The notes beneath the pieces were generated by a model that saw nothing but the letters and a program-made list of their open reading frames with translations, was not told the origin of the DNA and searched no databases. Below, piece after piece: positions 12,350 through 64,000 of a stretch of DNA of 64,000 nt; the stretch's first letter is position 1, and every line of letters begins with the position of its first letter. The stretch comes from Amphiscolops sp. MND2022 (Eukaryota): NCBI GenBank assembly GCA_964187785.1, contig OZ076409.1, forward strand, positions 11,100,001 through 11,164,000, written 5' to 3'. A program made the translations under genes and the position numbers.

Positions 12350-12350
12350 T

Positions 12351-24703: not shown

Positions 24704-24715
24704 TATATCATAGGT

Positions 24716-24735: not shown

Positions 24736-24990
24736 GCTTACTAGGTGCATTGTGGGGAGAGCTTAAGGCTCATCATCCAATTACAATGGTACAAAGATGG
24801 CTCCATAAGGGAACCGCAATAAGTTTAAATTGTAGTTCAACTAACTAACTAGAACATAAAGATAGGAGTTATTTAACGATACGTTACAAGGTAATCATTC
24901 CATGGGATAGTTTAAGACTTCCTCCCAGACATGACAATTATCGGGGTGGATAAATTAAATAGGGGGCAATAGAAAAGAGTTTTGGGCGGG

Positions 24991-32500: not shown

Positions 32501-32762
32501 GTACTTGCATACGATTTCCTCCAGCGCCAAAGCGGCTACATAGTAATTCAAACACCTTCTCGGGGGTGTCACGTTCGGATTCTGCTTTGTTAATGATGTA
32601 GTTGCGAGCTTCACCTTCAAGGTGACCAATGATGCTCCAGGCCTGGTCCTCGGCTGAGACCTTGGTTTGCGTTCTCTTCAGGTATCTCTGCATAATAAGG
32701 ATCCACCTATCAATGGATCCGTCTTTGGAACCGCGATATACATTAGGTCTCGCCTGAGCCAA
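29577..32762 (-). pseudogene. pol: Element A gag-pol, middle part: capsid-like region, CCHC knuckle, protease, dUTPase-like segment and RT; ends at a premature TAA
   Basis: CFNCGQAGHFARDC; LVDTGSG and FLLGRNFL (protease); YPLPRID, RMPFDLCNA and YIDD (RT). TAA replaces Lys in EI*YLG and the frame continues in phase into the next ORF. Confidence 0.93.
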
Positions 32763-36799: not shown

Positions 36800-36817
36800 A
36801 TCCCTCTGTGGTCGCCA
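36800..36817 (-). other. Primer-binding site, tRNA-Arg-like
   Basis: Minus strand TGGCGACCACAGAGGGAT is complementary to a ...ATCCCTCTGTGGTCG-CCA tRNA 3' end, recalled as resembling eukaryotic tRNA-Arg(UCG). It lies 15 nt from the LTR. Confidence 0.75.
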
Positions 36818-36832
36818 AAAAATGAGTTTCTA

Positions 36833-37560
36833 TGTAACGATAAGCGCTGGCGCTTGAACCGCAACGTAGAGTGGAGGAACTAGAACAGCGAATATAATCT
36901 GGGACCTAGATCTCCGCGGCTCTAGCTCATTTTCCCTCCGAAGGAGCCAGTCCCAAGGTGGGGGAACCGTCTTGTAGGATACTCTCTGGCCTGGTCCTAG
37001 TCTGTAACTGCTAAAAGTAACAGGTATCTTGCAAGACTCAAGACCACTGCTCAACTAGCCTTTAAAAATCGGGCTGAAAATCGATGAAGGTTGAACCGTA
37101 ATATTGGAGAACCTGATAAAATCGCCAAATTGGATAAACAGATGTTCAACAACAGCTCTCGAGCATATTAATTAATCACATCGAAAAATACAATAAGAAA
37201 TCAAGAGTTCAGAGTCATTTGATGAAAATCGACCTCAGCTTCCCAGCGCTAGCGCTAGTTGCCACACAGGATACCACAGGGATACTCAGGCGAACATCTG
37301 GAACACTGGTTTCCTTTACTGTAGTAATGGATATCTCCCAGAGATAGACACAATACCGTGTTCTGTATGCGTTGGGGACGTCTTTTTGTCGTCTCCGGTG
37401 CTTGTTCGTCGCGAGCGGCGATTTCTGCTTTTCTGGGGTGCTTTTTCTGGCAGGTACTTCGTCTTGAGCATGTTTGAGTGCCACGTCAAATTTGAACGAA
37501 TTTTTGACAAAATTTCCAAACATGTCGGTTGATATTGCTGTACCAGAGCTTGCCGTTACA
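36833..37560 (-). repeat. 5' LTR of element A (728 bp)
   Basis: Direct repeat of 18908-19635, followed on the minus strand by the PBS. Confidence 0.97.
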
Positions 37561-38809
37561 TATATTCAATAATATATATATATATTCAATAATATATATA
37601 TATTCAATTGTTTCAACAACTCCACGTAGTCTTGTGGAAGAAAGTTTCCGTGATTTTGTGAACGAGAACTGACATTTTTCGATGCTTTGGAGTTCTTCCT
37701 TTCGCCACCTCCTTGCTCACTGGTATCCGAGCTCCCCGAGATCGATTGTTTCCGAGAATCACAGCCTTCTGCCATTGACAAACATTCGCCTTGTTTTTCC
37801 CTAAACATCCGTGTTAAAGGCGAGAGCAAAAACAAGCAGGAAATCAACTTAACAAAAAATAGGGCAAATGCAAATATGGCCTCTTTAGAAGTTGAACATC
37901 ATTTCTACTAGAAGTTTGGAACACCACAAAAAACCTCAGTTTGGAACAAACAATTTTCTAGCTTCTATCTCAATCACCTATTGGCTTGAAATGATAACTT
38001 CACCGAGGAAAAACATCGGCAATCAATGTCACGAACATTTTCTTTATCATTAGTTCCAATCCGTTAGTTTCAATTCAATCATTAGTTTCAGCGCACTGAA
38101 AACCCTTAATTTGAACTCCTCATTATCGCATTTAGAATGGTTGTTCAAGTGATTATTATGTCAGTTTTTGCTTATAACAACCTTTAAAGTAGAAAAAACG
38201 TTAGATTACAAACCTGTTCAATGCAATGCGGAGGTTTCGTGTTATATTGATGCCGGTTCGAGACTAATTGTCATCAGGTAACACGAATACTCATAAATAA
38301 CAGGTGAAGTAACCATTGGTTTCACACCAGACTAGGTTTTATAGGAGCAGTTATCATAACAGTTACCGTGACATGCGATGCGGCCTTAGATTTGCATCTA
38401 GTTGCTAGCAAAAATGCAAACACATAATACTCAATTCTTAAGAAACTCAGTCGAGCAAAATTAACAGACAATGGCCTTCCGTTTATGGAAGTTTTTTTCA
38501 CACCTACAACTTGAATAAAAATGGAGATTTTGCAATATTGCTGAAGATGCTCGGATGAGTGAGATTTTTTCTTGTAAAAAAGGATCTCATTTTGGTGTAT
38601 TCGCTATTCACTAAGGTTACTCAGCATTTCTCACGTTAGAATAAAATAGATCCGCTTTCTCGTAACGACGGAGTTATCGTTAGCCAACTAAAAAATTCGA
38701 ACGCTAAGTTTCGACGTTCAGCTAAATTGTCTTCGAGAATACCGAACGTTAGAAAGTGATAAAAAAATTTCAAAATCGTTTAGCCTGAATCATTGAAAGT
38801 GCGAATGAA

Positions 38810-42757: not shown

Positions 42758-45216
42758 TTAAAACCCAATTCCATAGGGTGGACGCCGAACAAGTATTTCG
42801 GGTTTTCAAAGTTGGTCCCCTTTTGGATACTATCTCCTCATAGTGAGGTTATGGTACTGTAATGACAGTCAGCTTGGGATATGTTTTCAGTTTCTCTTGA
42901 TTCAGAGGTCGACGGGACGTTCCTTATACTAATTGTTCCAGAGGTTTGTTCTGCCCCATTCTGTTTCTTCAAACAGGGAATCGATTTTTGGAAACAAATT
43001 CCCAATCATTGCAGGATTTCTCTCTGTTTTGTCTCTGTTTCCTTTATACTTCTGCCAACTGATTTTTTAAATTTCTCGGAGTTCTGTTTATCTCCTTATT
43101 CTCGGAGAATTCATTATCCGAAATGCTCGTGACTTTTTCAGGTAGGCTAGTTGTCTCCAATTCCTCTATAGTGCCCCATGGTGCATCTCGTTTAGCATTT
43201 CTCTTATATGATCTTTCGAGCTTTTTTCAGCGACTTTGAAGGTGTATTTTCACGAAAATTTCATAAAAGAGTTTTCAAGTGTTTCAATATTCTCAATTAC
43301 GAAATCAGACGAAATATTATGATTAATATCCCAAATTTCACACAATTTTTTTTCTTCCCATTCCGGGAAAAAAGTCCCCACAACTTCCATACCTCTGGCG
43401 TCCATCGGTGGCAGAAAAACAGAAAGTTCAGTTCAGCATTGTCGAACACAGACTCTCAGTTTGTTCCTGCTTTCCGGGAAAAGCAAGCGTCCACTTCCTG
43501 TCGGAGTTGCCACTCGGCTTTTCTTCGCTTCTAATTCCCGTCCTTCAGGACGCCGAAACTGTACTTGGCCGTGAAATAACATTGATGATTCAAAAAACAC
43601 TTTTTTAGAAGTCATTACAATCAATTTTCATGGAAAAGAAAAAATCTTCCTGATTTAACTCAAATACTCCACGATACATCATAATGCTTCAAATGGGTCA
43701 ATTTCACCGGGTTTTTAGGTGATTAGAGCTGAATTTTCAAAGTAACACAAATCTAGGTCCCAGGCCACTGTCTAGAACGCTTGAGTAATTATTTATTATC
43801 TCACTCGAAAATAGTTATGAACCGCACATAATAACAACAAAGACTGGGCACTGGCTCATATTTATAGACATTTTGTTAAAAAGCGACAATATTCAAAATC
43901 AACCCAATAAATCATTTCTACCTTGAATTTGATGATTCCCTTTTACCGGGACACGTCCGGGGCCGTGGTTCACGAGGTGGTGCTGTTCAAATGCAAAAAA
44001 AATTGCAGGTACTCACGCGCTTGAAAACTAACATAGAAGTGGTTCAATTCCAATACAGCGCACATTTCATTTCGAGGCCGCTAGCCAGGCCGGCGTCTCA
44101 TTTCTTAGTAGGACGCGGGATCGCCGCTAGAATTCTCAGGCCGTTCGCCAGGCTGAGCTTTTAACTATTGTAAATTACATAGCGCCGTTTAAATATCTAT
44201 TATAGCTTCGTGATTGTTGCTGACAACCCGTCTACAAGTAGGTAGTCGATAACCAATTAGTAATATGAAGTACTGTTCTAAATGGTTCAGCTCCGTTGTT
44301 TCGAAGTTAAAGGATGGATTTTTTGTTATTTTTTCAGATGTTGGTTCCTTCTTTCATTCTTTCTTTCCATTTCCCGTTTCCTTCTCCGTAAACTGAGCTT
44401 GTTTTGTGGCAAAATTCACAACTCAGCTGGGGCTGTGACAGTCCTCGGCTTCGGAGTTCAGTCTGGTCTGGGAGAATGAGAAATAACTGTGAAATAGATG
44501 GTATGAGGGTGTAGAAAAGTGTTGCTAGATCGTCTCGCATCGCGTCAATCGCACGCCAAGATGATTCATGGTCCCAGTCACTGCCCGAGTAGTAACCTTC
44601 AGAATTGCTTCATGAGCTGATGGGACTCATAAAGACGTTATCTGGTTTTACCGGATTATCGTGTGACAATTGTCTGACCGCGTCTCGGTTGTTCTCTTCG
44701 TTAACTATCAATTTATTTGGTTGCTGCTCGTATACGAGGACCACGTGTAGGTCCGCTGTTTTGATGATTTCGTGAAACGTAGTTGTCCTTGGCGGGTTAA
44801 TTATGTTGTATTTAGGCGGTGGGGTATTGGGTCTTTGTTTCTGCTGCTCCTGTTGATCTCGATCAAGGAAAACAGTGTCGTCATTGTTGTGTTCATTCGG
44901 AGTTTGGAAATTCTATTTGTTTCGGTTACGAACTGAATATCAGGCGGTTTGTAGTGCGGAGCTGAATAAATTTCGCGTTTCGTAATTTGTTCAGGAGGTT
45001 TCGTTGAATTTTGAGTTGTTCATCTGGCAGACCGCCCAAATCTCCCTTTTTAGTAGATAACTTCTGATACTAATACTTCTATGATCTTTTGCCACATCTT
45101 CTCTGTAATAGTATTTGCTATTTTCGGATTGCTTGAAACAAAAATGTGCTTTACGGAAGAAGACAGTGCACTTCTGCATTGCAGTCGTGAAGCTGGTCTT
45201 GTTGAGAGTTAAAAGA

Positions 45217-47710
45217 TGTGGAGGCAGTTATCGAGTCTGTGCTTGGGAGTGTGGAGGGGTGGACGTCAGTGGTGACAAGGACAAAAGTGGAGAGGTTTGT
45301 GGAGGTGGACATGACGTTTCGACATCGCGTGGATTTGGTGAGAGAGATTGTTCAAGTGATGATGCTGATGACGGAGATGAGGAAAGGTGTGCCGTCCTTT
45401 CGTTCTGCGCCCAGTGACAACCGTAATACCATTGACTATATGGCAAACAAGAGAAGTGAACTTTCCTAGAAATTAAATCAGCGGTAGTAGTTGTGTTGGA
45501 CCGCGTTATTGTTAAGTTTACTTTCACTGTTACCAACGATGAACTTGATAAGGACTATTCGTCAAGCTGCAGGACTAGGTCCCAGAACAAGACGAAACAG
45601 CGGTCCAGTCGTGTGCTGTCCACCAGTAGTGTGCGATCGACCAAGCGTGTGCGCTTGTGTGACATCCTTTTGGGTGCCATTCACAGGTCTCTTACTCTGT
45701 ACGACAGTTCTCGTGACGACAATGTGCCGCCGACAATTTCTGCATCAAGTGTTCTTGAAAGGTACTCTTGCTTGTTTCTCCTTGTTTTGAAAGTCTTCTC
45801 TGTAATGGGTTGTGGTTCTATATTCAACGCCCCATTTTTATGTACTTCATTTTTTACTGTTGTCGTTGCTGACCTCGAGACTGGGCTGGGTGGTTTGTTC
45901 TGCTGCCGAGAGTAATGTGATTGCCTGTGCTGAGACTGACGCTGTATCAGTGCTCCCAGCAGGACCTTCCCGAGATACCATGACGCACCATGGTCGTGCC
46001 GCTGTCGGATTGGGGCCGTCTGTTATCCACAATGTGTCGGGAAAAACGAATAGTTTCGTTTTTGTGTATGTTGTGTATTTTTTTCCATTTTTCCTCTGTC
46101 TGTCTTTCCGCTGTTGACTAGTTGGTTTCGTTTACACTATTGTGAAAAGTTGTGGTTTGTTCTTAGCTGGCCTGGAGTCTGTCCCTCCTGGTTCACCCGT
46201 AGTGATGTCTGCCGCACCTGTGTCTTATATTGACTCGACGTGCTGCCCGGACTGAGGTGACCTAGGCATTGAGAGAGAGAAGGACGTTGGCCAAGTATCT
46301 ATTCGGTTATTGTCTCCCATACTGCTTTTTGTTCGTGTGGTTCAACCTTGTTCATCGACATTTGTTCCTTGTTTGGGTTTTGTTTGTTTCCTTGTTGTCA
46401 TCCTCATCATGCGTTACCGGATTGCTCTTTCAAATCTGTTTATTTAGAATTTGAAGAGTTGTCACAGTTGCTAAAGACAAAGAGCACTGATGCCAACAAT
46501 TCTTGTCGTGTGTTGGACGCTCTGGACTCCAAATAGGAAAAACTGGCTCGTGAAGAGGAACCTGCGAAGAAACAGACTGACCGACAGGTCCTGACCAAAG
46601 CCATGAGTGACCACCCCATTCCGAGGTTGTTCGTCAGCCGACGAAACAACAAAAGCCCAGTACACTTCGACTGCTCCATTTGCCAAAATGTTGTCTCCTT
46701 CTTGTCTCCTGGACCCCGAGGCATTCGGAGGCATTTTTAAGAGCAAAGGGCATTATCTGAAGACCGGCGTTACCGTTTAGATGACGAGTACGTCATCTAT
46801 ACAGTGAAGTTTGATGCTATTCCTGTTAGTGAAGAGTCTGCAGTGCTAATGTCCGAAATTGAGAAGACACCGCATTTGACCCTGGGCGAAATGATCAGAT
46901 TTGTGGAAGACGAAGTTTATGCATTGGTTGGCGACACGTCCAATGTACCTCCAACGACCCTTGTTGATTGCGTGTTCGAGTTGCTGAGGAGTGGTGGTTC
47001 GAAGGTACTCCTGCGCCGTCTGGGGCATCAATTCCAAACGACTCCGCCCGTTGACAGCCCATATGTCTCTGTTACCTGGAGCAAGACTGAAACTTTGTTG
47101 GTGATCGTGCAAACGTTCGACCCGCGTGGACATCGTCGTCTGGAATCGTAGCTAGGTGAGAGACCTATTAGCTTGGCGCTGCAAGCTTCATTCTCCGTTG
47201 TTAATTGTACCGTCTGCCGTTGTCCTGATTCTTCTTTATGTAAAGTGTGCCTTATAGACGAGGATCATTGCGCTGCCTACTTTGAAGCAGAGATACAGTT
47301 TTTGTCTCGGGCAATGCCGTTCGTTTCTACTCGTCTAGGGCCTGTTGCCATCCAAAACTGCCCCCGCTTCTATTTAATGACTACATTAACTAGTGACGTG
47401 CTGTGGGTTGACCCGTACCCATTGTTGCGGTTGCTTTCGGCTTCGATTCTTTGCGTTGTTTGTTTGACGTGGCCAGTTTCGTGTGTGTTGGTTCGAAGGA
47501 GATTATTAGGAGGTGACGCCGAATACTGTCGTGGACCTGTTTCAGGACCTTGTCGCCTGTCTTCTGGACGCCGGCTGTCTGGACGATGTAGAGAATGAGT
47601 CTGCAGTAAACGAGTTCAAATCTTTTGTACTGGTGATTGTTCAGAAGTTTTTGAAGTGTTCGACTATTTGGAAGCAAGTGGGAGTTACCAGTGTCGATCT
47701 GATGTGAAGC
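45217..47710 (+). pseudogene. Antisense zinc-finger/hAT-transposase-derived pseudogene within element B
   Basis: HFDCSICQNVVSFLSPGPRGIRRHF/KSKGHY finger at ~46660-46756. TTLVDCVFELLRSGG, TWSKTETLLVIVQTFDP and GPVAIQNCP align with the intact gene at 57782-62542. Contains stops and frameshifts. Confidence 0.6.
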
Positions 47711-48339
47711 AAGTTGATCGACTGCTGCCTGTTGATGTGTGCCCTGCTCCCAGTATGTTGCCCCACTTTGATGTTTTCACCAGTGGAATGTTTGGAGGAG
47801 CTGAAAAGTATTTTCCGAACTGACATCAGTTTAAAAGTTGTAGAACCATCAATCCCTGGAGTGGTATCAGTCGCCATGCCTGCAAGGACTTCTTTAACAG
47901 TACATTTCCTTGTTATACAACAATTTTGTGTTCTTATTGTCGTCTGGCTCTGCAGTGCGCCCCGTGGCTTATGGTTCGGCCTCTGCAACTGACCTTGTTC
48001 CTGCTGAAAGTGAGCTGACTGCATCAGGTTCGTCATCGCGAGTAAGAAAAGGAAGTAAGAAGTGTCAACGTCATAGGAAATCCTTCTGATCGTGACTTTG
48101 TTTTAAACTTCATTGGTTGAATTTATTCTTGTAGTTTGTTTTGTATTTATTCTATACTTATTTCTTGGGTTATATTAACGGACTCCTCCTGAATGTATTC
48201 TTATAGAAATGGAAATATTAGAGACAAAGGAATGTAAAAAATGCACCAGTATAAGAAAACAATCCGGTGGCGACTCAATGTCCAATTGGGTTTTTGAAAT
48301 TAGTATTCAGTCTCTGTTTATTTTTCATTCGAGTTGAAG

Positions 48340-51300
48340 AGTGAGAGAATCTGTAGCCACTTTTTCTGAAGGGATTTTGAGTTAAGTTCAGCATACTTCT
48401 CCTGGATTTTGCCTGAATCGTTTCACATTTTCGGTCCTGGGCCATCCCTCAGGCCTGGGCTTGAAAAGTTCACATTTCTAGGTCGCTGTCCAGGTTAATT
48501 TTCTGGGTTGGTGCGTTTTCTGGGTTAGAATCTGGGCTATTGTAGTGGGCGAAATCTGGTTTCTAATTTGACGTTGGGTTTGATCTGAGAATGTAGTTGG
48601 GTGTTTGAGGGAATATGAAGTTTCGGTGTAATGGGATTATCATTTCTTCTTAATTTTCCACGTCATCCGTGGTGTTTTGTGTTCTTGTGTTAGGTCGGGG
48701 TCGTTTCTGGGTTTTCTTTTTCGGGTGATGGGTATAGGAGTTCAGACTTATCAGCTTGGTTTTATTGTTGATGTAGCTCATATTCTTTGTAGGTTTCTGA
48801 CCATGCTAATGCATATAGGTCATCATGTTGTATTGTTACCTCGTTGTCCTGTTGGAAATCTTTGGGTGATACTGTTATATCTGGCAGTCGTTTGCTGCTT
48901 GTAAAGGGTCGCAATTTGATCCTCTGCAATAATTGAGTGAGGTTTGTTTGAAATTTTTGTTCTAGGTAGTTGTTGTTAGGGAGGGTTTTGACCACGACAT
49001 ATGGCTCCGTCCAAAGGTAATCTCGAAACGGCAGTTTTGTAGCATGGCGATGAGCCTTTGGATGTAGTTCATAGCAGTATTCGTTCACTACCAAGGGGTT
49101 AGCTGATGCTTTGTTGTCATAGTAGCATTTGTGGCGTACGTCTGACTTCATAGGTGATTGTTGTGTCTGGCTGATGATTTGATGAGTCTGTTGTAATACT
49201 TCCTCCGCCAGTTGGATTGGGGTTTTAAACCATTTTTCAGGTCGTTTACGTTATATGGTACTCTTCAGCAGAACACTCGGCTGGGTTTGCATGCCAGGGA
49301 TGCGTGATATGATAAGTGTAGATTAACACAGCCACTGGTAGGAAATGATGCCACTGGGTACGGTTTTCTCTTGTCGTCATCTTCAGATTTTCATAAAGGG
49401 AGGCGTGGGTCCTTTCTAGGTTACCAATGGTTTGAGCATGTTTGGTTAAGGCGTAGTTTAGTTGGATGCCCAGAACTTAGGTTGTTTGTGCCATTGGTTC
49501 TGTTATGAACTGGGATCCTTTGTCTATTATGCTGGTTGTAGATAGATAGCAGTATCTGGTGAATATGTCGATCAGGACACAGGCAACTGTCTTTGTATCT
49601 ATCCTGACCAAGTTGTATGCAAAAAGCGACCGAGACAAAACGTCCTTCGCTGTGATGAGTACGTTATAGCATTCTGATTGGTCGTCGAAGGTTACTATGT
49701 CCATCTGGAGGACGTCTTCGGGTCCCATTGCCATCTGTGACGTGTCTATCGATGGCGGAGTGGTTGAAGTACTCGGTGTCATTTTCGTTTGAATGCTCTC
49801 TGGGCATTGTGATATGCGTCGGCTTATTTTGGTGGCCAGTCTGGGGTAATAGTATTTTTCGTGGCATTGAAGTATAATTTTGGCAAAGGCGGGGTATTTC
49901 CCGAGCAGCCCATGCTGGTGTTGAATGTATTCGTGTATTAGCTGATCTGCGAGTAGGACTTGTAGGTACTTTGCTTTCCTTAGAAGTACTGTCTATGAAA
50001 GATTCCGTCTTTGATCATGGTCCCGTTTTGGGCGAGGTGTTTCGCTGCTCTTGCTGCGTAGATGGGTGTCTTTTGATACTCGGACATCTTTCAGTTTGAG
50101 ATTTCTAAGCACTGGGTCTTGGCCTTAGTGTGGTCTCAAGCTACGTGGAAAAATGTTCTCATCGTGTAGATACCTTTGCTGTTACCTGTCTGGGTCTTGT
50201 TTGTTGTTGCAGAACCTGGGAGGGTTTTGCGTTTGAGAATCTGGGGTATGGATGGCGGTTTTGAGGTCAAGTTGTTGGTACGGTTGCGAGTTTATTTTCT
50301 TTTTTCCCTTGTTTCCTCTCCCAGATGTCCTCTTCCGTTTTGGAAGCATCTTCTGTGCAGTTTAGCAGTGGCTGTTTGATACAAAGGTCGCAGGTTTTTT
50401 CCAGGGACTTGTTTATGGTTTCAAAGTTCGTGATCAGTTCGTGATCAATTTTCGCTGGTTTTTCCGATTTGATGAGTTCGTCAAAAGGGCGATTCTTTCT
50501 GATAATCTGGGGATGTAATTTCTTTAGTAGTTTACAAAGCCGAGATATTTTGTAATTCTTTTCTTTGTTCTCGGAAATTTGAGCTTTTGTAGATAGTTTT
50601 GAATTTTGTTGTTTTGAGGTCCCACGCTCAGAGGAGAGGTCGTTCAGCCAAGAAATTCCACTTCTTTTGCTCCAAACTGACATTTGGCCATTGTAACTGG
50701 CGTCTTGCTGCGCTGATGCATTGGAATACTTCTCTCAAATTGTTTTTCAACTCATCGGGGGTATTGGTCGCTATACCAATGTTGTTCACCTGGGCGAATT
50801 TATCCCTCTTTATGGTTTTGTCAAGGTACTCTCTCATGAAGCTCGCGAAAGATAGATGACTGCGAGCCACTGAGGCCTTGGGCTAGCGTGGGGTACGCCA
50901 ACGTCCTGCTGGCGAAGTTCAACGCTAGAAGTTGTACTGACTTCTGATCTTCCATTTGCAGAACGTGGTGAGCTTGTGAGCAATAAAGCTTATATAACAA
51001 CTTTTTGCAAGCGAGGTGCTGCACGGCGTCTGTCATTGTGCTGACCGGATGATTGTAGTTAATGTAATCACCTGAGAGCAGGTTGTTGAGCTTAATGAGG
51101 TCGACTGAGAGGCGCAGGTTTCCGGTCGGTTTTCTTCGTGTCAATATGGGGCTGGCGTATTTGCTGAAAGGGACGATTGTTATAATGCCAAAGTAGTGCG
51201 TAATTGCTAGCTCTACAATGAAGTCCTCTTTTAGGTTAATTGGGCGAATTGAGTAGACGAGTTCTTCGGTTTTTGGTGTTAACTTTTTTCCGAAGTCGTG

Positions 51301-52400
51301 GTTCATCCCAATGTCCAGCCTGTGCCTGGCGAAAATATCGTGAAACTCTATTAGGATTTCTTCAATGTCTTTCTGGTCCTCATCATTTAGTTGTGAATCA
51401 TCCAATTTGAAGCTTTTGAGCAATGTTTCTCGTTCTTCCGGGCTGTTGATTGGTCCCGTTTTGGGATTGCTTCGAGTTCTTTGATTTCTCTCACTTTACA
51501 TCTCTGGATGGGGGTATGGGTATTTGGGTCGTCGGCAATTTTTGTCGTGAAGAACCAATAATATATGTTGGCAGACGGTTTGTCTGAAGTTTTTAGAAGT
51601 TCGTTGACGTATGTGAGGGCGCCGTCATAATCAACTTCTGCGAGCATTTTCAGTGTTGTTATGCTGAGCGGTTTCAGTTTTTTTGCCTCTGCTGGGGACA
51701 TTATTTTGAATTCTCCAATTGTTGTATTCGTTTTGATGGTGAATGAGTGGGTGTTGTTTGTAACCCTGACTTTCTGTTTGATGGTGTGGATATGGAACTT
51801 GCCGTGTATAAGGGAACACCACTGCAATGGTTGGTAGCCGGGATTATGACACCGGTTGTGTCGATGGCTGATGATACATCGGTGTATGCTGTGGTCATTT
51901 GCGTCGTTTCGGCTGGTATAGTGATGGGGTGTTTTATCTGGACCTTGTACAGTTTTTTGTTTCTGGTGTTTTTGTCGGTCTCAATGGAATACGTGAGGTG
52001 GGGGAAATTTAACAGCCCTTAGCTCACGTCCAGGATGGCGCTGTTATTCTTGAGGAATGTGAGGTCGAGTATGGGTCCAGTGATTCGTTTGGCGACGATG
52101 AATGTTTCTCCGAAGTTCCAGTCTCCTATTTCGAATTAGGCAACATGGTTTTTGTGGGTGTTTGATTGTTGCCGTTAACGACTGGGAATTTAAATGGGTG
52201 GGTTCATCTCTTTGATGATGTCTTTGGGTGAGATTTGTTGTATTTTGACGTAGTCTGTTTTTAATAAGCAATTTACTATTGCACCTGAGTCCATTCAGGC
52301 GTCGAGGGTGAGTTCTTGGAAATCCATGGGAGCGAATAGCTTCTTCTTCTTCTTCTTCGAGGGTTATCGCTGGGAAAATGGATATGCAGGTGTTTGTTAC
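48340..52400 (-). pseudogene. pol: Decayed gypsy pol (PR, RT, IN)
   Basis: DA*MDSGA (protease); FARHRLDIG, PFSKYASP, NHPVSTMTDA, AQGLS and VNNIG (degenerate YVDD) (RT); LQMDIV...DKGSQF and WTEPYVVVK (integrase). Confidence 0.9.
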
Positions 52401-54416
52401 TGGGTCGAGGGTGAGGTATTCTGCAATCTGATCTATGGGGTAGGGCTTAAGTTCAGTTCGCCCTGAGGTGGTATGGCTTCATCTCCAGTGGAGTATTCAG
52501 ATTGCATGTTGGTTTCATCATTTGTAATGGGTCAAGGGTCCTCGATTTCTTTTCTTGACTGGCTAGTGTGAGAAATGGTGGAGACTGATGTCTCTTCGGA
52601 GGAGATAGGTCGCAAACGCAGTGACTTTAGGACTCTCCTTGTGTACGGTTTGGACATGATTGTACTCGTGCTGGTTGTTAAGTGGGCAGGGTCCACGGCT
52701 TCAGTCGTGGGCCTGCTGGTAGTGTTTTCGATTGGGTGGAAATCGGGTGGAAATTGGAAAAGTAAATGTTAAGTATGGCCAATGGCATAAACTACAGGAA
52801 CAAGCAAAGAATACTGTCGCCTCATAATACTCGTGTTTGGCACTTTTGTAGTCTACAAGTAGTCTAAAGCGACTATTGAAATCTGCTGGCTTCAAAGCTC
52901 GTAGACAAAAGGATGGCCTCTAAACACCTCTTTAAATAATTTTGCTGGTTGCCAACAAGACGTTTTGGGGCATGGAAAGGGCAGCTCTAGACGTTTCCCA
53001 TCACTAGAACTTTTTAAGGGGACAGTTCACCTCAATATATTTAGTACTCGTCGTCACGAAAGCGGTAGTGGGACAAGAAAGAAGAATTAAAAAACTCTTG
53101 AAACATCTTTTGAAGTGACTTGCTGCGCCCCATCTATTCTGTCAATAAACCGTTCCACCATTTTTTTTTCAAAACGAGGGGGCATTTACTGACAGCAAAG
53201 TGCTTTTTAGGAGAGAAAAGTTGAGGTTTTTACGGATGTAATTCATAGTGTCAGCGTATGATTCGTCGCGTTTTCAACTGATTTTTACAGATAGTTGTTC
53301 CATCATTTTCTGATCAGAAGACGCAACGCCTCCTGGGAACGAAAAAACTAGCACGGTGAAACTACTTTGTCCAACATTAAGAATTCGCAGTTGATATTTC
53401 ACTTTTTCAAACCCCCGTGATATTTGTACGAATTGTTAGGGTTTTTGGATGTTTCGGTAAAAGGATTAAAGATTTTGACATCGAAACGAAAAGGTGTGAG
53501 GTGGCGACTCCAAAGATCAGTTGCTTTTATAAATAGTCGAGCTGCATCTTTTTTCGTGTTAGTATTGATATCAGAGCTCTCACATTGTTAAGGTTGAGAA
53601 GTCGGTTTGACTTCAACGTCAAAGGAAAATTCATTGGTAAGGCAAAAATAACTGCGCAAACGTGTCTCATCGTGATCTCATTGTGGGGTATACGGGTGAA
53701 ACCTCCTGGTGTTTTTGTTTCCTTGCTGTAACGTAAAAGAAAACCGTTGTGAAATTCGCACTAGAAGGGTTGAAAATGTATTTCATCAGCAGTAGCACGT
53801 TGAGCCAGTTTGAGGATCTCACTTCTTGACTTACAATTCATCGTGGGCGAGTTTTTCCATAAATATTATCTTACATTTTTCGAACTTTGAGTTGTTCCAT
53901 TCGTAATTTGTCATGATCTTTCCTTTGTATCGCCATCGAGAATATCGTGTCAAAGTCATGAAAATGTTGAAATACATCATCGGAACACGCGTACTCTTCG
54001 GTGTGGTCGTTTGGGATTTCCTCTTTCCTAATCACACCACCTGGGTTCAGTGTCAAGTTTGATAAAATTCTCTCCCGATCCGAATTAGTTGGTTTTCTAA
54101 GTGGGACTCAATCTCGTTGATGTTTTTGCTATGCTGTTGTGTCGTACGGTCAAAGAACTCACATTCCTGAGTCTTTCCTGAAAGCCTTTTCTCAGGCAAA
54201 CTGCTTCCTTTCTGAGTCTCGTGATGTATTCGGGTTCAACTCTTGGTGTAGAACGCTGCATATACCATTTTACCTTTTCGTCTTTGATCGAGTCCACCGA
54301 CCGGCCGCAAACCATGCATCCGGTATAACGTACCTCGCTGACATTCTGGCAGGGTACTGAATTCTGTACATGGTATGACGCATGAAAGTTGCTCGGAGCT
54401 GGCTGGAGAAGGGGGG

Positions 54417-54726
54417 TGTCGAACCCAACCGTGTGGGTCGGCTTTGAAGGACCTTTCGAGGTTGACTGTCGGTTTTCGGTGTCTGTCTTACTTATGACAG
54501 CCATCATTAAGTCCTTCAGTTGACTGAACTCATTCTGTAGTTCGTTTATCTTTCTCTCATAACTCTCTTTTATTTCAGATAACTGAGACGAGATATCGGA
54601 AACCTCGTTGCTATCAGAATCATTGGCAGAAGACTGAGCCATGTCTGGGTCCGTTTGAATGGGTGTTTCTGATGAGGAACTAATAACTCTTCCGCTTCTG
54701 AGTTCTGTGCCTAGATCTGGGTTCAT
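54417..54726 (-). mobile_element. Element C: Gag-leader-like ORF (MNPDLGTELRSGR...) running to a putative LTR terminus ...GGTTCGACA at 54417
   Basis: LRSGR start and coiled-coil SQLSEIKESYERKINELQNEFSQLKDLM. Sequence character changes abruptly after cgaCA, the same terminal motif seen at 8213 and 10506. Confidence 0.55.
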
Positions 54727-55376
54727 AGAGGTGAGAGAAAAGGAATTATGAGTGAAGACTGGATTCTGGATGGTTTTTCGATGTATTTTACTATTTTGTG
54801 CCTTTATTCGAACTCAAATTCACTATTTCTGAACTTGAGATGTAAATGCGATGAGTTTTACAGTAAGACAAGGATACTAGTAAAAATGAGAAATAGTTAA
54901 CGAGGATTAAGCAGAATTCATCCAAATTTCATCGAACAGATATCGATCACGGAATTACTCAGAGTTGTGAAGGTAGTGTTTTACGATGAATAAGAGATAT
55001 GTTTTTCTAGTTCAAATCTGTCGTAACTCGTCCAACTGGACAGTAGCTAATCGCAATTTCGGTCTGAGTAATCTCTAATGGCGGTCCAAAATACAGCAGT
55101 TCACGTGTCTTTTCAGGCTGGTAAGACGCTAAATCTCTTACCAGCCGACTCTTATTGGCTATTGCCAGTTGGTGCTAATTGGTAAGTCACGTGACCGGTG
55201 TTGTGAACTGCCGCAAGTTGGCCAAACCACATGGTACATCTACATATGCTAATTATGACTAATCATCACTTTACAATGTCGCAATTGCCTGCACACAGTG
55301 TCATGGTTTCTATAGCAACTCAAATCATTCAATAATGTACTAATTTCAAGTCAAAACAGAGTAAACTGCATCACAG

Positions 55377-56262
55377 GATGAGAAAACGATGTTTTTCCAA
55401 CTAATTCTAGCACTAAAATCAATACTTCAAAAGCAAAGATGGAAACGCGATGAATTCGTCAGAATATTTGCTGATTTTCAAGTCTAGTTTAGCTCTGGAT
55501 GAAAATGCGATGAATGGTGGTCTTTTAGCTCGAAAATCAACACGATATGAACTGGCGATGATAAAAGGATGAACTCGTCTTCAAAATGAATGATTTCCAG
55601 CACAATTTAAATCAACGATGGTAAAAGGATGAACTCTCCTCGAAAATAACTAATTTCCAGCACTAGTGAAATTGACGATGAATTCAGGATGAATTCAGCC
55701 AATAAAACAGGTGAAACAGCTAATCCTGCAGTGAAGACAAATATACGATGACTTTAGGATGAATACATTCAATAAAACAGCAAAATCTAATGAATGAAAT
55801 TCCAACGATGGGTTTAGGATGAACTCAACTGAAAATTCGGCTAATTCTAACGTAAGTCGAACTAGCGATGAATTTACGACGAACTAGTGATAAGTTAATC
55901 TAATAAAACAGATATCCAGCACTTCACTCTTTTTTAGGATGAATTAAGGATGTACTTTCTCATTTCTTGCAGTTTCTGTTCAGGGCGATGAAATATAGAT
56001 GTGTTATGCTCTTTTTAAGAAATGAGAAGCACATTGAAGGTTAATAATCACAAAACGACGATGAGTATAGGATGGCTTTCATGCATTTTAAAGTCCCGTG
56101 AGATCCGCTGATGGATCACTAAATGAAATCAAATAAATGTCTCAATTTTGTTCACCCGCAATCTTGGCGATGTGATTGCGATGAACTTTGATAATTTAGC
56201 ACTGTAATTTCACTAGTAAATAAAGTTAAAGGATCACTAAATCCGCTGATGGATTAGTGATG
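55377..56262 (+). repeat. Phased array of GATG-N7-GATG motifs (13 perfect copies, spacing mostly 60-70 bp)
   Basis: Copies start at 55377, 55438, 55498, 55557, 55617, 55677, 55747, 55807, 55938, 55987, 56060, 56169 and 56248; intervening sequence is divergent. Confidence 0.9.
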
Positions 56263-56475
56263 AACTTTTCCCGAAATTCGTCACGACTACAAGTCCTGAG
56301 GCGAGGGAGCTAGTAGAAGTTACAGATTCCATTATTTCTACATCTCTCGGTCCAGTCTGACCGGAAAACTTCTCTCCCTTATCGTGACAGACCAATATTG
56401 AATAAGATAGCACATTAAAAGCTATTGGCCAGATCATTTGTGCGGACACCGGAATTAGAGCGCTCAGTATTAAGT

Positions 56476-56488
56476 AAATATATATAGC
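56476..56488 (-). promoter_or_regulatory. Putative TATA box for the Gag-direction transcript of element C
   Basis: Minus strand gctatatatattt...gagcgctc; context resembles ctataaatacgagcgctc at ~7483. Confidence 0.4.
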
Positions 56489-57781
56489 TCAAAATCAGGG
56501 GGGATAGGGATTAAAGTACAAGTAACGTAGGGTTGCTCACAACCATGGCTCTTATTATATGACATCATATTGCCCATATCTAAGTACATAAGACATAATA
56601 TTTACATTACAAATATTTAGTAGATTATATTTCCATCATGCTGGCATGACACTCCCCGGGGCGGGATTTGGACTGAGAGTGCAGGGGCCAAATGTGCAGA
56701 GGATGGTTGTCTCGGCGTTGGCTTCGACTGGTCCTTCGTTTGGTTGGGGAGAAAATGGCCTTCGTTAGTTCTGAATTGGCATGTCCTTCGTTTGTTCTGT
56801 CCTGTGAGAGCTTCTCTGAGAAGAGGACCTTCGGTAATTGTCTTTTCTGGCATCATCCTGGGTGATTTCGGTTAAAATTTTCGACGCGGCAACTCTAATT
56901 CTTGGTCCATCGAATGTCCGCTGATCTGTATTTTATTGGTTGTCATGCTTTTGACGGGAGTTTCGGCTGGTTATTTTCGGTAGGAGCTGATTTCTCGGAG
57001 AAAAGTTTCCCTCCAAAACGCCTACGCTGAGTAAACAATTCGATTAGCTTCATTGACATATTGGCAACGAGTCGGGGATGAATGAAAGATGAATTGTTTG
57101 CTCAGCGAGACATCAATGCTGTTTAGCGGAATGGCTGGCTCCGTTGCTTTGTTCACTCGCGATGGAAAGGAGATGAATCGTTGTCATAGCAACTGTCAAA
57201 AGTTACTTCCGCTGCTCGACTTTGAGTGAAAATGAGAAAGAGATGAATTCGTCGCCAAAGTAACTGTTGCTCGATCTGATTGGCTGAGACTGAACTTATA
57301 ACTGAAGGAAATTACAACCGGCTGTCAGCAGCATTCTCATCCATAAATCATCCTCCATTCAAGTCGTTTTGAAAATCGCCACGATTTCCTTTGCGCGTTT
57401 CCGCTCAACTTCGCCGGCATTGATCTGAGACTGGCAGCTGTCAACAAATCAAATACTTGAAGTTTTTTTGTCAAGTCCTAGGAGAGGACGATCCATTTTC
57501 AGAGAAGGCTTGAGTTGGCTGTACTGGGAAGAAAGGTGATGCCAGTATTTGAAATCGGAGTTTTTTCATCGATTTTTCATCTTCTGAATTCAAGTATTTG
57601 ATTAACATGGCATTCAAGCTGCGTCGCGCTTTTTGAAATCTTCTATTGAATTTGTTCTTCTGTAATCATGGTTGATCAGGCCATTTAATTACTGATCAAA
57701 TTCTCTGCTCTTGGATTCTTCGATTTCTTTCCTTCTTTCACCGTCTTCCATTCTTTTCAGATTGTTTTGCAATTCTTCGCG

Positions 57782-60700
57782 ATGTCGGATATCAACTCCG
57801 TCTATTCGTTACCAGAGACCGAGGTCACAGAAAGTAAGTGCACTATTTTTTCTCTTCTTCACAAACGGGCCGGGGAATAATTAGGAATTGAAGGCGTGTC
57901 TTGGTTTTAGCGGACTCCGTTCACTCTGTCGGCATAATTTCCGAACTGACTACGTTGCAGACAGTTCCGCCTCAAGATGCTCCAATCCCTGCAGCATCTC
58001 ACGCACCTCAGTATCAACCTGAGCAGCAAACTGAACAGGCCCCTAACGTCCCGTATCTTCCGCAGTGTAAGTACTATCCTTCCATTCTTCAGTTCAGTCT
58101 TCGAATCTCTCATATCTCATCCTTACTCCGTCCAGTAGCTGACTCCTTTTCGTATGGTGTTTCAGACCACTACCCTTGGTATGCCTCCCTAGGCAGCATC
58201 ACCTTCGGGTGGTATGACCGCCACATGCGGGACATGCTGCGGGACAGCATCCAGCAGTACAGTGAGTTTGTCAATTTCCTTTTCACTTCTCTAGGCTATC
58301 GTCCGAACACTCCGATGTGATTCCGATGTAAACATCTCATCTGCATGTAGTGTCCTTTGCGGTCGATTACCCATGTAATTCACCTTCGAGATGAATTTAG
58401 GATGTGTCATGAACATTCACAGCTCTCCATGACTGACTCGCTGTAAATCCCATTTTTTGAAGATGAGTTTTGGATGTATTCTTCTCCGGTTTTCTTTCTT
58501 CGCGCGGCGTACGCGCTCTTTCTTCTCTAATCGTCGTCGTCCAGTAACTGTTTCTTCTTTCAGGTCCCACACCGATCCACGCACCAAGGCCTCGTCCCAT
58601 CAGCTATTCCGTAGGAGTAGGGACGGGTGATTTCGCCGCAACTAGTGCTGATGCTAGCACTCAAGGAGGGCCCCCTCCACTAGAGTTGTCTTCGTTCCTT
58701 GAGGACCTGTCACTAGGTGCAGTGAGTTCTCCTGTGATGAGGCCTTCCGCTTCCGTCCTCTCACCGAGTCTCCATCGGTACCTCAACGCCAGTGTCTCTC
58801 CCAGGAGTCCTCTTCCTCCACCTCGCGTCACAGTTGACACCGCTGTTAATGCCGTTGTCAATTTCATAGATGCAGCCGTTGATGCCTGTGTGGATACCGC
58901 GGACAAGGAGGTCCAAGCCGTTACTGAAACTGCTGATGATTCCACGTCCTATGAACCCCAGGTGGAGACTTCTCTGTCTGCTTCTTCTCCTCCACCGGTT
59001 GCTGATGTTCCGGGGGCGTTTGATGGCGACGTTGATCCATCTGAAGTTCCTTCAACTGGCACCACTGAGACCCGACTGGAGATCCCTGACGATCTCTCAT
59101 TGCACAGTCCTCCATCTGGCATGTCAGTTCCAGGAAGTATTGTGTCCAATGTGGGTACTGTCGACCTCGAGACGTCTCCAATGGGACCCAGCCTGTTGGG
59201 CTCCGATGACGAGCCCATTGCATCTCGTCTGCCAGGTTAACTAAACAGCTTTAAACCGGTGAAGTATCTGATCAGTAGATTTTCATTCGTTTCCCTTTTC
59301 GTTTTTACTTTTGCTAGCATTTTTCACGTTTTTCTCTTTTTTATCCGTTTTTCATCGTTTTTCTGTTTGCACTATATGTTTTCCGCAGTTTTTCATTTTG
59401 CATCGTTTTCTCATCGTCAAAAGTTTTGAACAATAGTCTTTTCGCTCTCTGGTCCTTTTTTTTGAACTCTTCATCTCTTTTACATCTCTAAAATTTCTCG
59501 TTTCGTTTTTCTCTATCTTTCAGTGTTTTTTCTTTTCAGTTTACATCTCTTTTTCATCGTTAAGTCGTTTTCGCTCTAGAATATCTCAAATTTGGTTCAA
59601 AGTCGCTCTATTCATCTCTTTTTCATCTTTCGAGGCTTTCATTCTTTAAAGTTTCCATTTTTTCATCCTGGTGGTCTACAAATACATCTCTTTTTTATCC
59701 TTTTCATTTTTTCTCGTTTTTTCGCTTGTATTTCCCGATGAAAATATTGTTTTACATCATTTTTTCATCATCTCGGGGTGAACTTTTTGGAAAATTTCAG
59801 TGGATTTTCGAATTTGCTTGTTCTGCGGATGTGTAGAGGAAGAGTTAGACAATTTCCGTTTTCTTGTGATTTCAGGAAAGAAGATTCTCAAGACTGCGTG
59901 GTTTGCTCACGCGTATTGTGGATTGGCCCTGGGCTTTGCTAAAGACCACCGCACGCGAGATTCCTATGTCAGGTGTCTCTTGTGCAAGCAGGACGTCAAG
60001 ATCGCCAGCAGAGGTATCACGACGTTCTGGGAGCACTGTCGGGGGGTTCGGCACCACCGACTTGACTGTCTGGTTCGACTGCGACGGGGTCTGGCACTGA
60101 GGAAACGTGATGGTACGTTGATGTCAGAGGCGGAAGCTGCGGCTGTCACTCCAACATTGGTGGGCGAGAGTGTGCCACAAATGGAAGTGTGTCCGGATGT
60201 AACAGTGATGGAAGCGCTACGTATCGAAGCGGAAGGGAGGTCTGTGTGGAGCGATGTTTCCGATGAGCCAGAGGACAGACGAGTCGAAAGTGTGCGGTTA
60301 TTTCTGTGTTTGGTAGTGGATGCGATGTACCGTGGTTGCGACTTTTCCAGTGTGCAACATCTCTGGGATTTAATAGTCTCATCTTGTCGTCAACATTCAT
60401 CGCTGTTTGGCGCGGCTTGTCGTGAATCGGACGTGCTGGTTATTATTCTATATTTATATGTATTACATGTTTTGTGTTCATGTTACATGTAGGTGTGTTC
60501 CTTAGGTTTCATGTATTGTGATTTTTGCCAAAGTTCTCTCTCAATGGCGACAACGAAAAACTTGTTGTGAAGGTCAAACGGAACTGTGTTTAGTCTCAAT
60601 AGTACTAGCGTATAGGTTGACTGCTTCTCTTTTTGTAAAATGTGTGCTATTTGTGCGTTTAGAGTGTAGTGCTGCTGGGGCTCTGGCCGTATGTGATGCG

Positions 60701-62542
60701 GCGAGTGATCGGCATCTGGTCTGAGTCTGACTACAGTAGCTTCAGCGTTACCACTGTTGCAGACAGGGTGGTTGGCACGGTGACCGTTTGCACGTTGGAA
60801 GGGCCTTCAAGTTATGTTGTCTTCTCCCTAGCGTACGGTCAAGAGTGGGAGCAGGAAGCTGTGTCATGGATTGTGAATCTCCTTTGCTGTTGTGTTGGAC
60901 CAGTTGCGCCTGTTGGCATCAATTGTGGGTTGTTGCCGAGAGTGGAGAGAGTTTTGTGTGCATCCTCTGGGCCGTATGTTATTACGTTTGTGCCGTTGAA
61001 GCTTCACGACTTGAACAAATGTCTTGTGGATTCTAGTGTGCGTGTGATGGGTGGAAGTGACCTGTATTCAATTTTTAACCATCTACAAACTAGACTGAAA
61101 GAGTTTGTGAGGGATCCAATTCTGCTGGCATGTCCAAAACTGTTGCAGGTAAATATATTTAGGGTATCGTTGTGTGCGTGTTTGTCCTGGGATGTTAGTT
61201 TGTGACTGTTCTTAGGTATGAGGCTGTCGAGAGTCATGTGCAACTGTTTGTTATAAGTTTCTTCTGGTGTTTCAGTGTATTCTGGATGGAGAAGTGACTC
61301 TCTGGGATGTGCCTGATGTTTTGACAGAACTCTACAGTAATTGGATTGAGATCTCCTGTTTGTTGCGAGAACCGAGCAGCTCTGGGACAATTGAGTCCTT
61401 GGATCTTGTACTGTGTGGAGACCCAAGTGTTCCACTGCGATTTCATGCTTTGGCTATCGTTTTTCGTGCTCGTATGTACACTTTATTTTGTATAGTAATA
61501 TAGATTTTAGGATAGGGGATTGGGATAAGTTTTACCTTTCCGGACTATAGTGGTTGATTGTCGGGTTTACTTTTATGTGTACTTTAGTATCGGCTTTGGT
61601 GTTGTTTTAGTCGTTGCTTCATATCGCTGGAGTTTCAGCAGTAGTGGACTGAGGAGCTGTCACTGGGCATATGAGAGTGCGTGCTTCATTCATTCGATTT
61701 TGTCCAGAGTATGTGACGAAAATGAACTGCCTGCTGTGACAGACGTACGAGCGTGCTTGGAAGTGGAAGTAGCCAGTCTTGTGTTATCAGAAGTTAAATT
61801 GGGTGCTCTTCAAGATGAATTCATTGTACATTCATCGTGTTTCGACAGTCCGGATGTATTTGTGGCTGATGTAGCGACAGTGAGGAGTTTCTTTCTAGTC
61901 TTGGTAGAGGAGGTTCTGCAAATTCGCGGGATGAAAGAATCAGTGTCATTTCATCTAAGTGTGTGCTGCCCTGCTGTGTTATTGTGTGGAGATGCAAATG
62001 TGCTTGCTAGTGAGGTGGAGCAGTTCACAGAATTGTTAATCGATCTGCGGAGAATCCGTACATCAGAGAAACGACAGATGGATGGAAGTTTCAGGTCGTT
62101 TTTGACGAATTTCCGGCGCGGGGCAACTGATGTCGCTGTTGACAGTTGCAGTTCAGCCGTGGATATTCTCCGAGCCTGCGATAATCTGCATTCTCGACGT
62201 TTGTTTCGTTTCCTGATGTGCCTTGGAGGGAGTCCCCTTTTCCCAGGAACTTTGAGTTGTGTTGGTGTGGGGCAGTTGCGTGCGAATGTTACAACTAGTG
62301 TGTGTGCTACTATCTTGAGTTTCCTCAAGACTCATTGTGTTCGCCAGTTTGAAAGTGTCAGTGGGCCCTTAGTAGAAGAAGTCGTCGACGCAATAAGTCG
62401 ATTTACAGTCCTGTCAGAGTTAACCGAAGAGATGCTCTGGGATGACGTCGGAGTTGTTGCAGACGAAGCTTATCGTCAATCTCTTTATGAGTTGATGGGT
62501 TTCACTGAAGAGGGGGAACGTGCTCCGAGTCCGGAAGTTTGA
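57782..62542 (+). CDS. Intact 8-exon gene, ~1060 aa: disordered N-terminus, C2H2-type zinc finger and hAT-transposase-derived body lacking the DDE triad
   Basis: Exons 57782-57833, 57911-58066, 58136(or 58166)-58261, 58564-59235, 59876-60438, 60663-61148, 61276-61471 and 61611-62542. All are GT-AG and phase-compatible, summing to 3183 nt. Motifs: CLLC...WEHCRGVRH, FVPLKLHDLN, SYRW and RLFRFLMCL. Confidence 0.8.
59340..59770 (+). repeat. Intronic phased CATC-N7-CATC array (~71-bp period)
   Basis: Perfect copies at 59401, 59472, 59544, 59613 and 59755; near-perfect at ~59342 and 59685. Confidence 0.85.
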
Positions 62543-62867
62543 AGACTTGCTGTTCGCTACAATTTTTGCTGTATATTGTTTCATTGTGTACGTTTTGATT
62601 TATTATTTTATTTTATTTGTGGTACAGGTAGTGTTAGTGTGGGTGACCAAATCAATGAAAATACTATTAGATGAGGGAGGAGTGAAAAATACTACGTCGG
62701 AAAGGTCGGTAGTATGATTTATGTACATTAATTAAAATTTGGTGCCCGAAATTCATTTTCATTTAGAGCTGTTAGTGGTAGACGTTGTAGGTAGTGAAAT
62801 TTTGCGGTTCATAACTTTCTTAGTCTGCTAGTAAGTCATGTCATTGAGCTATTCGGGTTCCTGTTGT

Positions 62868-63250
62868 CATCGCTTTAACATCGTTTTTTCGTTGTCGTAA
62901 GTCTCAAATGGCTCTTCTCACGGTGATCATCGTTGTTACATCTAATATACATGTAGGTAGTATATCAGCGTTGCGGTATTGATTTTACATCTCATTTTCA
63001 TCACGTTTTCCTCGGTTGACCGGGCGACGTCGCGAAAGTTGTTTTCTCATCTTTTTTACATCGTTTGTTATATGCGATTCCTTGCATGTTTGTTACATGT
63101 GATTTTCCTACATAGTTCATCGTTTTTTCATCTTGCCTTTGAATTTTTGCATTTTTGCTAGTTTTTGGTGTAATTCATCGTTTTTGCATCGCAAGTTTGT
63201 CTTGTCCAGTTTTTGCTCATTTTGCTGTATAGTTCATCTTCTTTTCATCG
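62868..63250 (+). repeat. Downstream phased CATC-N7-CATC array (~60-bp period)
   Basis: Perfect copies at 62868, 62928, 62988, 63048, 63118, 63176 and 63235. Confidence 0.88.
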
Positions 63251-64000
63251 TATTTTTGAAATGTACAATTTTTGCGTGTATTCGATGTTATTTTGCTATA
63301 ACGTAAGCGGGGTTGCATTTTTCATGTCCGGGGGAAATTTTTATTAGTATTGCGGTGATTCAGAGTGTTTTCTTCATGTATTTTAGCGTTATACGGTTAT
63401 AATCGTTTGTCGTGTTTTTGAATTTGCATGAATTTTATAGTACATGTGGTTTGATCATCGTCGTCATTTTTCTAATTTGTCATCTTCGGAACGTCATAGC
63501 ATGTATTTTTAGTTCGAATTCTGGTGACCGCCGCGTGCGTGGCAGTCGAAAATAAGTTCACTCAGCAGTGGTACTGATAGCCTGTAGGCGTGCAAGGTAC
63601 TAGTGGCTTCAGTCCAAAGCTGGGTGAGTGGAGCTGCTCCGCTCCTTTCAGATGAATTGAATCTCGTAGTTTCGGGCTATATATAGTGTATATGTCATTT
63701 TTTCGGTTGGTTGTTTGCCATTATTCATCGAAATGGGTTTGTCCATTTGACGGTCAGTCCGATCAATTAATATGATTGACAACTACAGTTATGCATGTGT
63801 CCAGTTTGAGACTATCTGTTTCTTGTATTTACATGTATGGATTGTTACATGATGTGTTCTTTTTAAATGGGTTGCCCCATTATTGACATGTCGTTATATG
63901 TTCGGTGTCAGTTTCATGTTTTTTAATTTTATTTTCGTTCATTTGGACAGGGCTTTGTCGTCACAAAGCCCCTACAAAACTAACTGAGAATCCACTAGCC

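Follow-up and report, generated by a model that had tools for sequence, protein, structure and literature searches.

A stretch of 64,000 nucleotides from Amphiscolops sp. MND2022 (assembly GCA_964187785.1, contig OZ076409.1, positions 11,100,001 to 11,164,000; hereafter the window, whose own positions serve as coordinates) contains one end of an intact 19.3-kb Ty3/Gypsy long terminal repeat (LTR) element, which carries many copies of the dyad GATG-N7-GATG and a spliced gene antisense to gag and pol. From sequence comparison we conclude that the dyads are probably family self-recognition sites for the product of this antisense gene, a predicted dead hAT transposase, whose binding would probably keep copies of the element active. 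The family to which the element belongs is called A below, and its sister families B, C and D.

Number, spacing and layout of the dyads

Between positions 54700 and 63300 we counted 22 GATG-N7-GATG and 15 CATC-N7-CATC words, or 37 dyads, and seven was the sole enriched spacing, with every other k from 0 to 30 giving 0-2 copies. The rest of the window (54.7 kb) held 2 copies at k=7. An earlier sequence-only reading had described about 30 such motifs with an expected spike at k=7; the motif, the spike, the individual positions and the 13-copy array at 55377-56262 were all correct, and the count was too low. The dyads lie in the LTR, in introns of the antisense gene and in 3' non-coding DNA, as follows.

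54769..54933: three dyads near the putative gag-pol start, at 54769 and 54839 (GATG on the plus strand) and at 54919 (CATC on the plus strand)
55377..56262, GATG on the plus strand: 13-dyad array in the U3 (unique 3') part of the LTR, spacings 49-79 bp
57077..57581: four dyads around a CCAAT-containing block, at 57077 and 57161 (plus strand) and at 57338 and 57567 (minus strand)
58314..58476, plus strand: three intron-3 dyads (58314, 58390, 58462), GATG on the antisense-mRNA strand
59401..59769, minus strand: five intron-4 dyads, spacing about 70 bp
60109..60210, plus strand: two exon-5 dyads (60109, 60196)
62868..63249, minus strand: seven-dyad array downstream of the antisense-gene stop

A further array of nine dyads stands 1.4-2.1 kb to the right of the last of these, beyond the window, and each LTR of the element has 16 dyads and its internal part 38, which makes 70 in all. 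Across the 1.07-Gb genome assembly, a search for three consecutive dyads gave 13,600 matches against 29 for the reversed control, and all eight loci checked among 100 matches listed aligned to the LTR of the window at 64-75%. At L025, seven dyads occur in coding DNA of the pol and gag frames, three of them, upstream of protease, spaced 48 and 69 bp apart. A micro-ORF reading, with an in-frame ATG...TGA within GATG-N7-GATGA, was ruled out by copies in introns and on either strand.

The retrotransposon that carries the dyads

The Ty3/Gypsy context of all these motifs, and the antisense gene as the likely source of a binding protein, had been overlooked in the sequence-only reading; its leftward transcript belongs to no host gene but to an LTR retrotransposon, of which it is the gag-pol unit. 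The element is young, and its LTRs (2235 bp, with TG...CA ends) have 5 mismatches between the pair (99.8% identical). The parts that fall in or adjoin the window are listed here.

54412..54416, no strand: 5-bp target-site duplication GGGGG, second copy after the far LTR at G000:C1:11173715
54417..56651, minus strand: 3' LTR of the element, its partner 17,063 bp rightward and outside the window
54417..54726, minus strand: 5' end of gag within the LTR, ATG at 54726; in the partner LTR the frame continues into gag with CCHC knuckles
55040..55340, no strand: promoter-like block with CCAAT-like and CACGTG words, seen as a conservation footprint; putative core promoter of gag-pol
56652..56670, minus strand: short purine tract adjoining the LTR, at the position of a polypurine tract, from which its role is presumed

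Beyond the window, the minus strand encodes gag and a 1,703-codon pol frame with protease-like, reverse transcriptase, ribonuclease H and integrase parts, and this order, gag followed by protease, reverse transcriptase, ribonuclease H and integrase, is the one that Ty3/Gypsy requires. A tract starting with TGG in the place of the primer-binding site and the short purine tract in the place of the polypurine tract both adjoin the LTRs where expected. The TG...CA termini and a 5-bp target duplication were found in 7/7 copies examined, each copy with a duplication sequence of its own, and the array at 55.2-56.4 kb is repeated genome-wide, mostly as pairs about 17 kb apart among the 40 of 1,579 candidates that were scored. 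This region had also been considered as a hAT element whose subterminal repeats would lie at 54.7 and 63.3 kb, a reading rejected when the LTR pair was found.

Further observations concern the element and its surroundings. A very highly conserved non-coding block at 56517-56950 runs across the LTR end and contains repeated CCTTCGTT words, possibly an RNA or cDNA signal. The young element was inserted in a short minus-strand open reading frame (ORF) of a family-B element (54097-54416; compare L026:3688-4203), and the 238-aa ORF at 54097-54813 is a chimera of the gag start and that short ORF.

Selection on the half-sites and on spacer length

We fetched 19 further family-A copies with exon-8 protein identities of 58-83%, each with 27-39 dyads per 10 kb, and aligned 17 of them to the window copy (70-85% nucleotide identity), with L047 and L062 excluded as rearranged. 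Over these 17 copies, identity to the window copy stood at 93.6% for the 68 non-coding half-sites, as against 77.3% for the 7-bp spacers and 75.1% for 4,100 other non-coding bases; 26 solitary GATG or CATC words reached 82% and 201 other 4-mers had a mean of 74.8% and a maximum of 92.5%. Both half-sites were kept in 485 of the 629 site-by-copy cells and not in the other 144, and the spacer was still 7 bp long in 471/485 orthologous sites with both half-sites; in control stretches, which were not conditioned on conserved ends, length had changed in 887/6,239 (14%). The half-sites and their spacing are thus under selection, as the sequence-only reading had proposed on the grounds that the spacers appeared freer than the motifs.

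That reading had also named the result that would speak for a neutrally decaying minisatellite, namely spacers as conserved as the motifs or k=7 no commoner than other spacings, and neither was found. A functionless, decaying minisatellite is accordingly a negligible prospect for these arrays. Tandem Repeats Finder (TRF) did report a single 60-bp two-copy array at 55556-55681, which favours such an origin and indicates that duplication of units contributed to the arrays, but the gap between half-sites and spacers, the retention of spacer length, and a motif and ladder common to five separate arrays with dissimilar units all argue against it. Outside the half-sites, similarity between neighbouring units is only 24-41%.

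Helical phasing of the dyads

The recurrence at about 60 or 70 bp noted earlier is real, yet it is part of a wider ladder. Among 34 dyad-to-dyad spacings of 40-95 bp within one element, clusters were found at 48-49, 58-61, 69-73 and 79-81 bp, with four stragglers (76, 84, 87 and neighbours). Phase coherence at 10.5 bp was R=0.70 (p about 1e-4 against two nulls) and R=0.53 once the 60-bp class was removed. Orthologous intervals mostly vary by 0-4 bp between copies and the larger changes come in steps of about 10 bp (60/70, 58/70/80). This ladder, together with the interval changes of about 10 bp, favours a protein on duplex DNA, and the sequence comparisons support the earlier suggestion that the motif could serve a dimeric or multimeric protein as its site on DNA.

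Helical phasing is a property of duplex DNA, which disfavours the other earlier suggestion, that the dyads act as sense-strand RNA elements (CAUC-N7-CAUC, akin to the YCAY words of Nova-type or Y-box proteins) for an RNA-binding protein, and we regard this as very improbable. The suggestion came from an apparent switch of orientation, with GATG to the left and CATC from 57338 onward and one exception. A local flip does exist at the conserved CCAAT-containing block at about 57270-57420, where most flanking copies read CAUC on the nearer predicted transcript, but the rule fails for 54700-63300 as a whole: six of the 37 copies are exceptions, including the GATG copies at 58314, 58390, 58462, 60109 and 60196 to the right of 57338. 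Three of the six are the intron-3 dyads, which are GAUG in the antisense pre-mRNA and are kept at orthologous places in diverged copies. Moreover, the position of the 13-copy array in U3 places it upstream of the putative gag-pol start, and the genomic RNA covers the whole element and hence both orientations. Nova or Y-box binding would call for uniform sense-strand clusters, and instead both orientations occur on both predicted transcripts.

Phased A-rich spacers could also set the pattern through nucleosome positioning or DNA bending, with no protein recognition of the motif. Spacer positions 4-8 are 77-96% A/T, and three 60-bp steps make 180 bp, both of which fit this idea; the selected bases, however, are the GATG half-sites and not the A-tracts, and the dyads of the sister families are GC-rich. 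We judge bending or nucleosome phasing improbable as the explanation.

The antisense gene and its predicted hAT-derived protein

The antisense gene has the following parts.

57270-57420 (approximate limits), no strand: conserved CCAAT-containing block, putative promoter of the antisense gene
57782..62542, plus strand: antisense gene, predicted to be hAT-transposase-derived, 8 coding exons, 1060 aa, from comparative alignment and profile alignment
57782-57833, 57911-58066, 58136-58261, 58564-59235, plus strand: exons 1-4
59876-60438, 60663-61148, 61276-61471, 61611-62542, plus strand: exons 5-8
59974..60054, plus strand: C2H2 zinc finger (CLLC...H...H), Spin-doc/BED-like, candidate DNA-recognition module

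The 1060-codon frame is open in the window copy, and all 7 introns are bounded by GT/AG in 17/18 copies. Third codon positions are about twice as diverged as first and second positions, and for exons 5-8 identity was 46-49% at third positions and 84-88% at second positions. The projected frames are stop-free in 7/18 copies, the stops elsewhere being real lesions or slips of projection. This is a spliced antisense gene under coding constraint, and its orientation opposite to the genomic RNA may explain how the introns could be kept.

In the finger, the CxxC...H...H pattern is invariant, and the region is 90-96% identical within family A, compared with 57-83% for exon 8. Its look-alikes include Spin-doc and BED clusters, at 0.90-0.92 in Atlas (leads only), and the Pfam BED match was only sub-threshold. 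The assignment of the protein to the hAT fold was made through the homologue in family C, which is a long intronless frame. Its structure model (predicted local distance difference test score, pLDDT, 79.5) gave ten best Foldseek matches that were all Hermes transposase (best E 6e-4), and comparison with Hermes by VIA gave Z 11.9, with 387 residues aligned at a root-mean-square deviation of 4.9, the next Z being 6.2. The model predicts for the family-C protein an RNase H-like core with a helical insertion as in Hermes. Exons 5, 6 and 8 of the window align in order to the family-C profile (E 6.5e-8, 6.1e-5 and 1.7e-3; profile-alignment probabilities 95, 65 and 15%), and by this route the window gene is predicted to have a hAT fold as well.

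Among 23 family-C and family-D sequences, none of the three presumed catalytic positions (the end of strand 1, strand 4 and the third-residue helix) holds a conserved acidic residue, and the hAT-derived protein is predicted to be catalytically dead, its catalytic triad lost. No inverted pair bracketed the gene among the 25 longest of 42, nor was an 8-bp duplication seen; the gene moves together with the LTR element. A word-seeded protein search with exon 8 among longer proteins gave no match, the same type of search gave 33 unnamed matches for the family-C protein and 42 for the finger alignment, all from one source type, which says nothing of absence in other sources, and a PDB sequence search gave no match below E 0.06.

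In young copies, the gene body (58735-62922 of the window) was swapped for a diverged version in 4/6 and was absent in a fifth, while LTR and pol stayed about 97% identical, from which we conclude that recombination between lineages took place. Across family A the finger and the motif are unchanged.

Sister families and family-specific motifs

Families B, C and D carry a related gene in the same position and orientation, and the reverse transcriptases of B and C are 65-67% identical to that of A. Scored matches put the copy numbers at no fewer than 136 (A), 121 (B) and 150 (C). The GATG-N7-GATG dyad occurred 27-39 times per locus in 19/19 family-A loci, and the 32 loci from the other three families had 0-2 copies each. 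GGCC-N6-GGCC was present in 9/10 B loci and 0/41 others, its sites lying in the LTR and upstream and downstream of the gene, as in A. In family C, AGGC-N8-AGGC was found in 3-5 copies in 10/10 loci and CAGGC-N7-CAGGC in the LTR, and family D showed a weaker GTCC-N8-GTCC. The dyads of B and C are conserved islands in footprints. A control LTR from an element lacking the gene (18908-19636) had no comparable dyad, a single control being weak. ACTG-N8-ACTG was ruled out as a family-B motif since it is located in coding DNA.

The fingers differ between families at putative recognition residues. The helix before the first histidine enters the major groove in the Hermes BED finger, as described in PMC10368747, and the residues there were ITT in all 8 fingers that could be read from 9 A loci, PYE in 7/7 of B, PRG in 9/10 of C and E[PL]E in 11/12 of D. 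Taken together, the sequences suggest a family-specific pairing of finger and motif.

The dyads could instead be sites of a host DNA-binding protein, such as a transcription factor, an insulator protein or a domesticated BED-finger protein, with the antisense gene serving some other role. The gypsy element of Drosophila has 12 Su(Hw) sites. LTRs routinely gather host-factor sites, this LTR also has conserved CCAAT-like and CACGTG words, and BED-finger host proteins with insulator or promoter roles (BEAF-32, DREF) have been described. Against a host factor stand the distinct dyad in each of three or four sister families, with a finger that differs at the putative recognition helix, the match of all eight checked array loci to the family-A LTR, and the presence of arrays in introns of the antisense gene as well. 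We consider a host factor unlikely, though a more serious contender than bending.

Several observations bear on the sister families separately. A decayed family-C element, of which an LTR remnant and broken versions of the antisense gene and pol are left, occupies 42974-52750 of the window and contains two CAGGC-type dyads, at 44075 and 44138; GGCC-N6-GGCC words occur at 9242, 9457 and 12413. A further short sense ORF lies between the antisense gene and the 3' LTR in families B (L073:1525-2346) and C (L079:3470-4099), with no Pfam match for either. At L081/L082, family-C copies stand in tandem with a 13.6-kb period.

Proposed mechanism and its weaknesses

If the antisense protein does recognise the dyads, two BED-like fingers would read the two half-sites one turn apart, and a transposase-type multimer would span successive dyads at whole-turn steps. 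Coating of U3, the antisense promoter, the introns and the 3' spacer might then raise transcription or hold off repressive chromatin, and the protein could act in trans on all cognate copies. Given binding, we rate activation or anti-silencing at slightly better than even; a role on cDNA or at integration seems rather unlikely, and repression or insulation a little less likely again.

Some of our results weigh against self-recognition by a hAT-derived protein. The ratio of observed to expected CpG is 0.94-0.98 in pol, gag and flanking DNA, and CpG transitions are without consistent excess, so that there is little sign of any methylation that could be removed; demethylation of the VANC type is unsupported and such a step disfavoured. 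The finger is the most conserved part between families C and D too (72-80% against about 40%), and its conservation within A is therefore not specific evidence. A structure model of window exon 5 by itself (pLDDT 66) led to no informative structural match, Pfam gave no significant match on the window exons, and the catalytic positions were taken from predicted secondary structure and not from residue-level superposition. The motifs of B, C and D were picked out post hoc from a large number of 4-mer and spacing combinations in related loci, which makes the table of motifs by family suggestive and not a test of binding; a locus of these families has only about 1-5 dyads, compared with 34 in A, and the D motif, itself weak, also turns up in B. 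It is common for LTR families to differ in the host factors that they use, and the same table would be expected from that.

A broader and more tentative proposal, to which we give somewhat less than even credence, is that a Ty3/Gypsy clade captured a hAT transposase, killed its catalysis and diversified into orthogonal finger-motif pairs, no fewer than three and perhaps four (GATG-N7, GGCC-N6, CAGGC-N7, GTCC-N8), each activating or shielding its own copies through a multimer on phased arrays without relying on demethylation. ORFs that lie antisense between pol and the 3' LTR have long been puzzling, and for the one described here an origin can be traced and a target proposed. If binding is true, self-recognition in the style of VANC and TnpA would extend to class I elements by way of a captured class II enzyme, the families would offer natural orthogonal zinc-finger and motif pairs for studying the co-evolution of specificity and sites, and the high copy number of families A, B and C would be explained in part.

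Other features of the window

Another Gypsy element, with 729-bp LTRs that are 99.3% identical, lies at 18908-37561 and contains an extra 1,439-aa sense ORF at 20396-24715. The first 17 kb hold a 29-31-bp tandem array and a dispersed repeat family (3870-4140, 4260-4650, 11850-12790, 16430-16790).

Comparison with known systems

In a literature search that did not extend to subscription journals or repeat databases, we found no report of a hAT-derived gene in antisense orientation within an LTR retrotransposon. Among DNA transposons, VANDAL elements of Arabidopsis, as described in PMC5735166, encode the accessory protein VANC and have family-specific short motifs in introns, intergenic and terminal non-coding DNA, and here too family-specific motifs have accumulated in non-coding parts of the encoding element. 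In contrast to VANC, which is reported as MAIN-related (PMC13547354), the protein here would be hAT-derived and its host is an LTR retrotransposon; the motif is a helically phased, spaced dyad in old, diverged units and not a fast-turnover tandem repeat (PMC5735166); and no CpG-methylation signature was seen in the family-A element. The VANC domains DUF1985 and DUF287 had no Pfam match in the element proteins.

Spm TnpA and the AtMu1 transposase are, as proposed here, transposase-derived regulators of cognate copies with catalytic residues lost, but according to bioRxiv 10.64898/2026.08.24.746577 they act on their own DNA-transposon family, whereas here a class II enzyme would serve a class I element; the words "retrotransposon" and "LTR" are absent as whole words from the available text of that report. 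Hermes BED fingers bind 4-bp motifs cooperatively and require an AT-rich neighbour (PMC10368747), and the predicted fold, a candidate N-terminal finger of BED type and the paired 4-bp motifs in AT-rich context are shared with Hermes and other hAT elements as described there. Unlike in those, the gene here showed neither terminal inverted repeats nor an 8-bp duplication around it, the acidic catalytic residues are not conserved, and the family-A motifs are direct repeats 11 bp apart spread across 19 kb.

The plant Ty3/Gypsy elements with Grande gene23, RIRE2 and Retand TRP28 have an antisense ORF between pol and the 3' LTR, with its own promoter, predicted DNA binding and family-specific repeat arrays (PMC7264820, PMC11963269). 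Most of these ORFs are described as having no clear origin, that of Retand containing a "transposase 28" domain (PMC7264820, PMC11963269), and the origin and function of antisense ORFs are called unknown in PMC7264820. The family-A gene differs from them in being spliced, in its predicted hAT fold and in a candidate motif that covaries with the gene. By analogy, then, the system would resemble VANC and the transposase-derived activators in its action while being a member of neither, and its layout appears to be that of the antisense ORFs of plant Grande and Retand.

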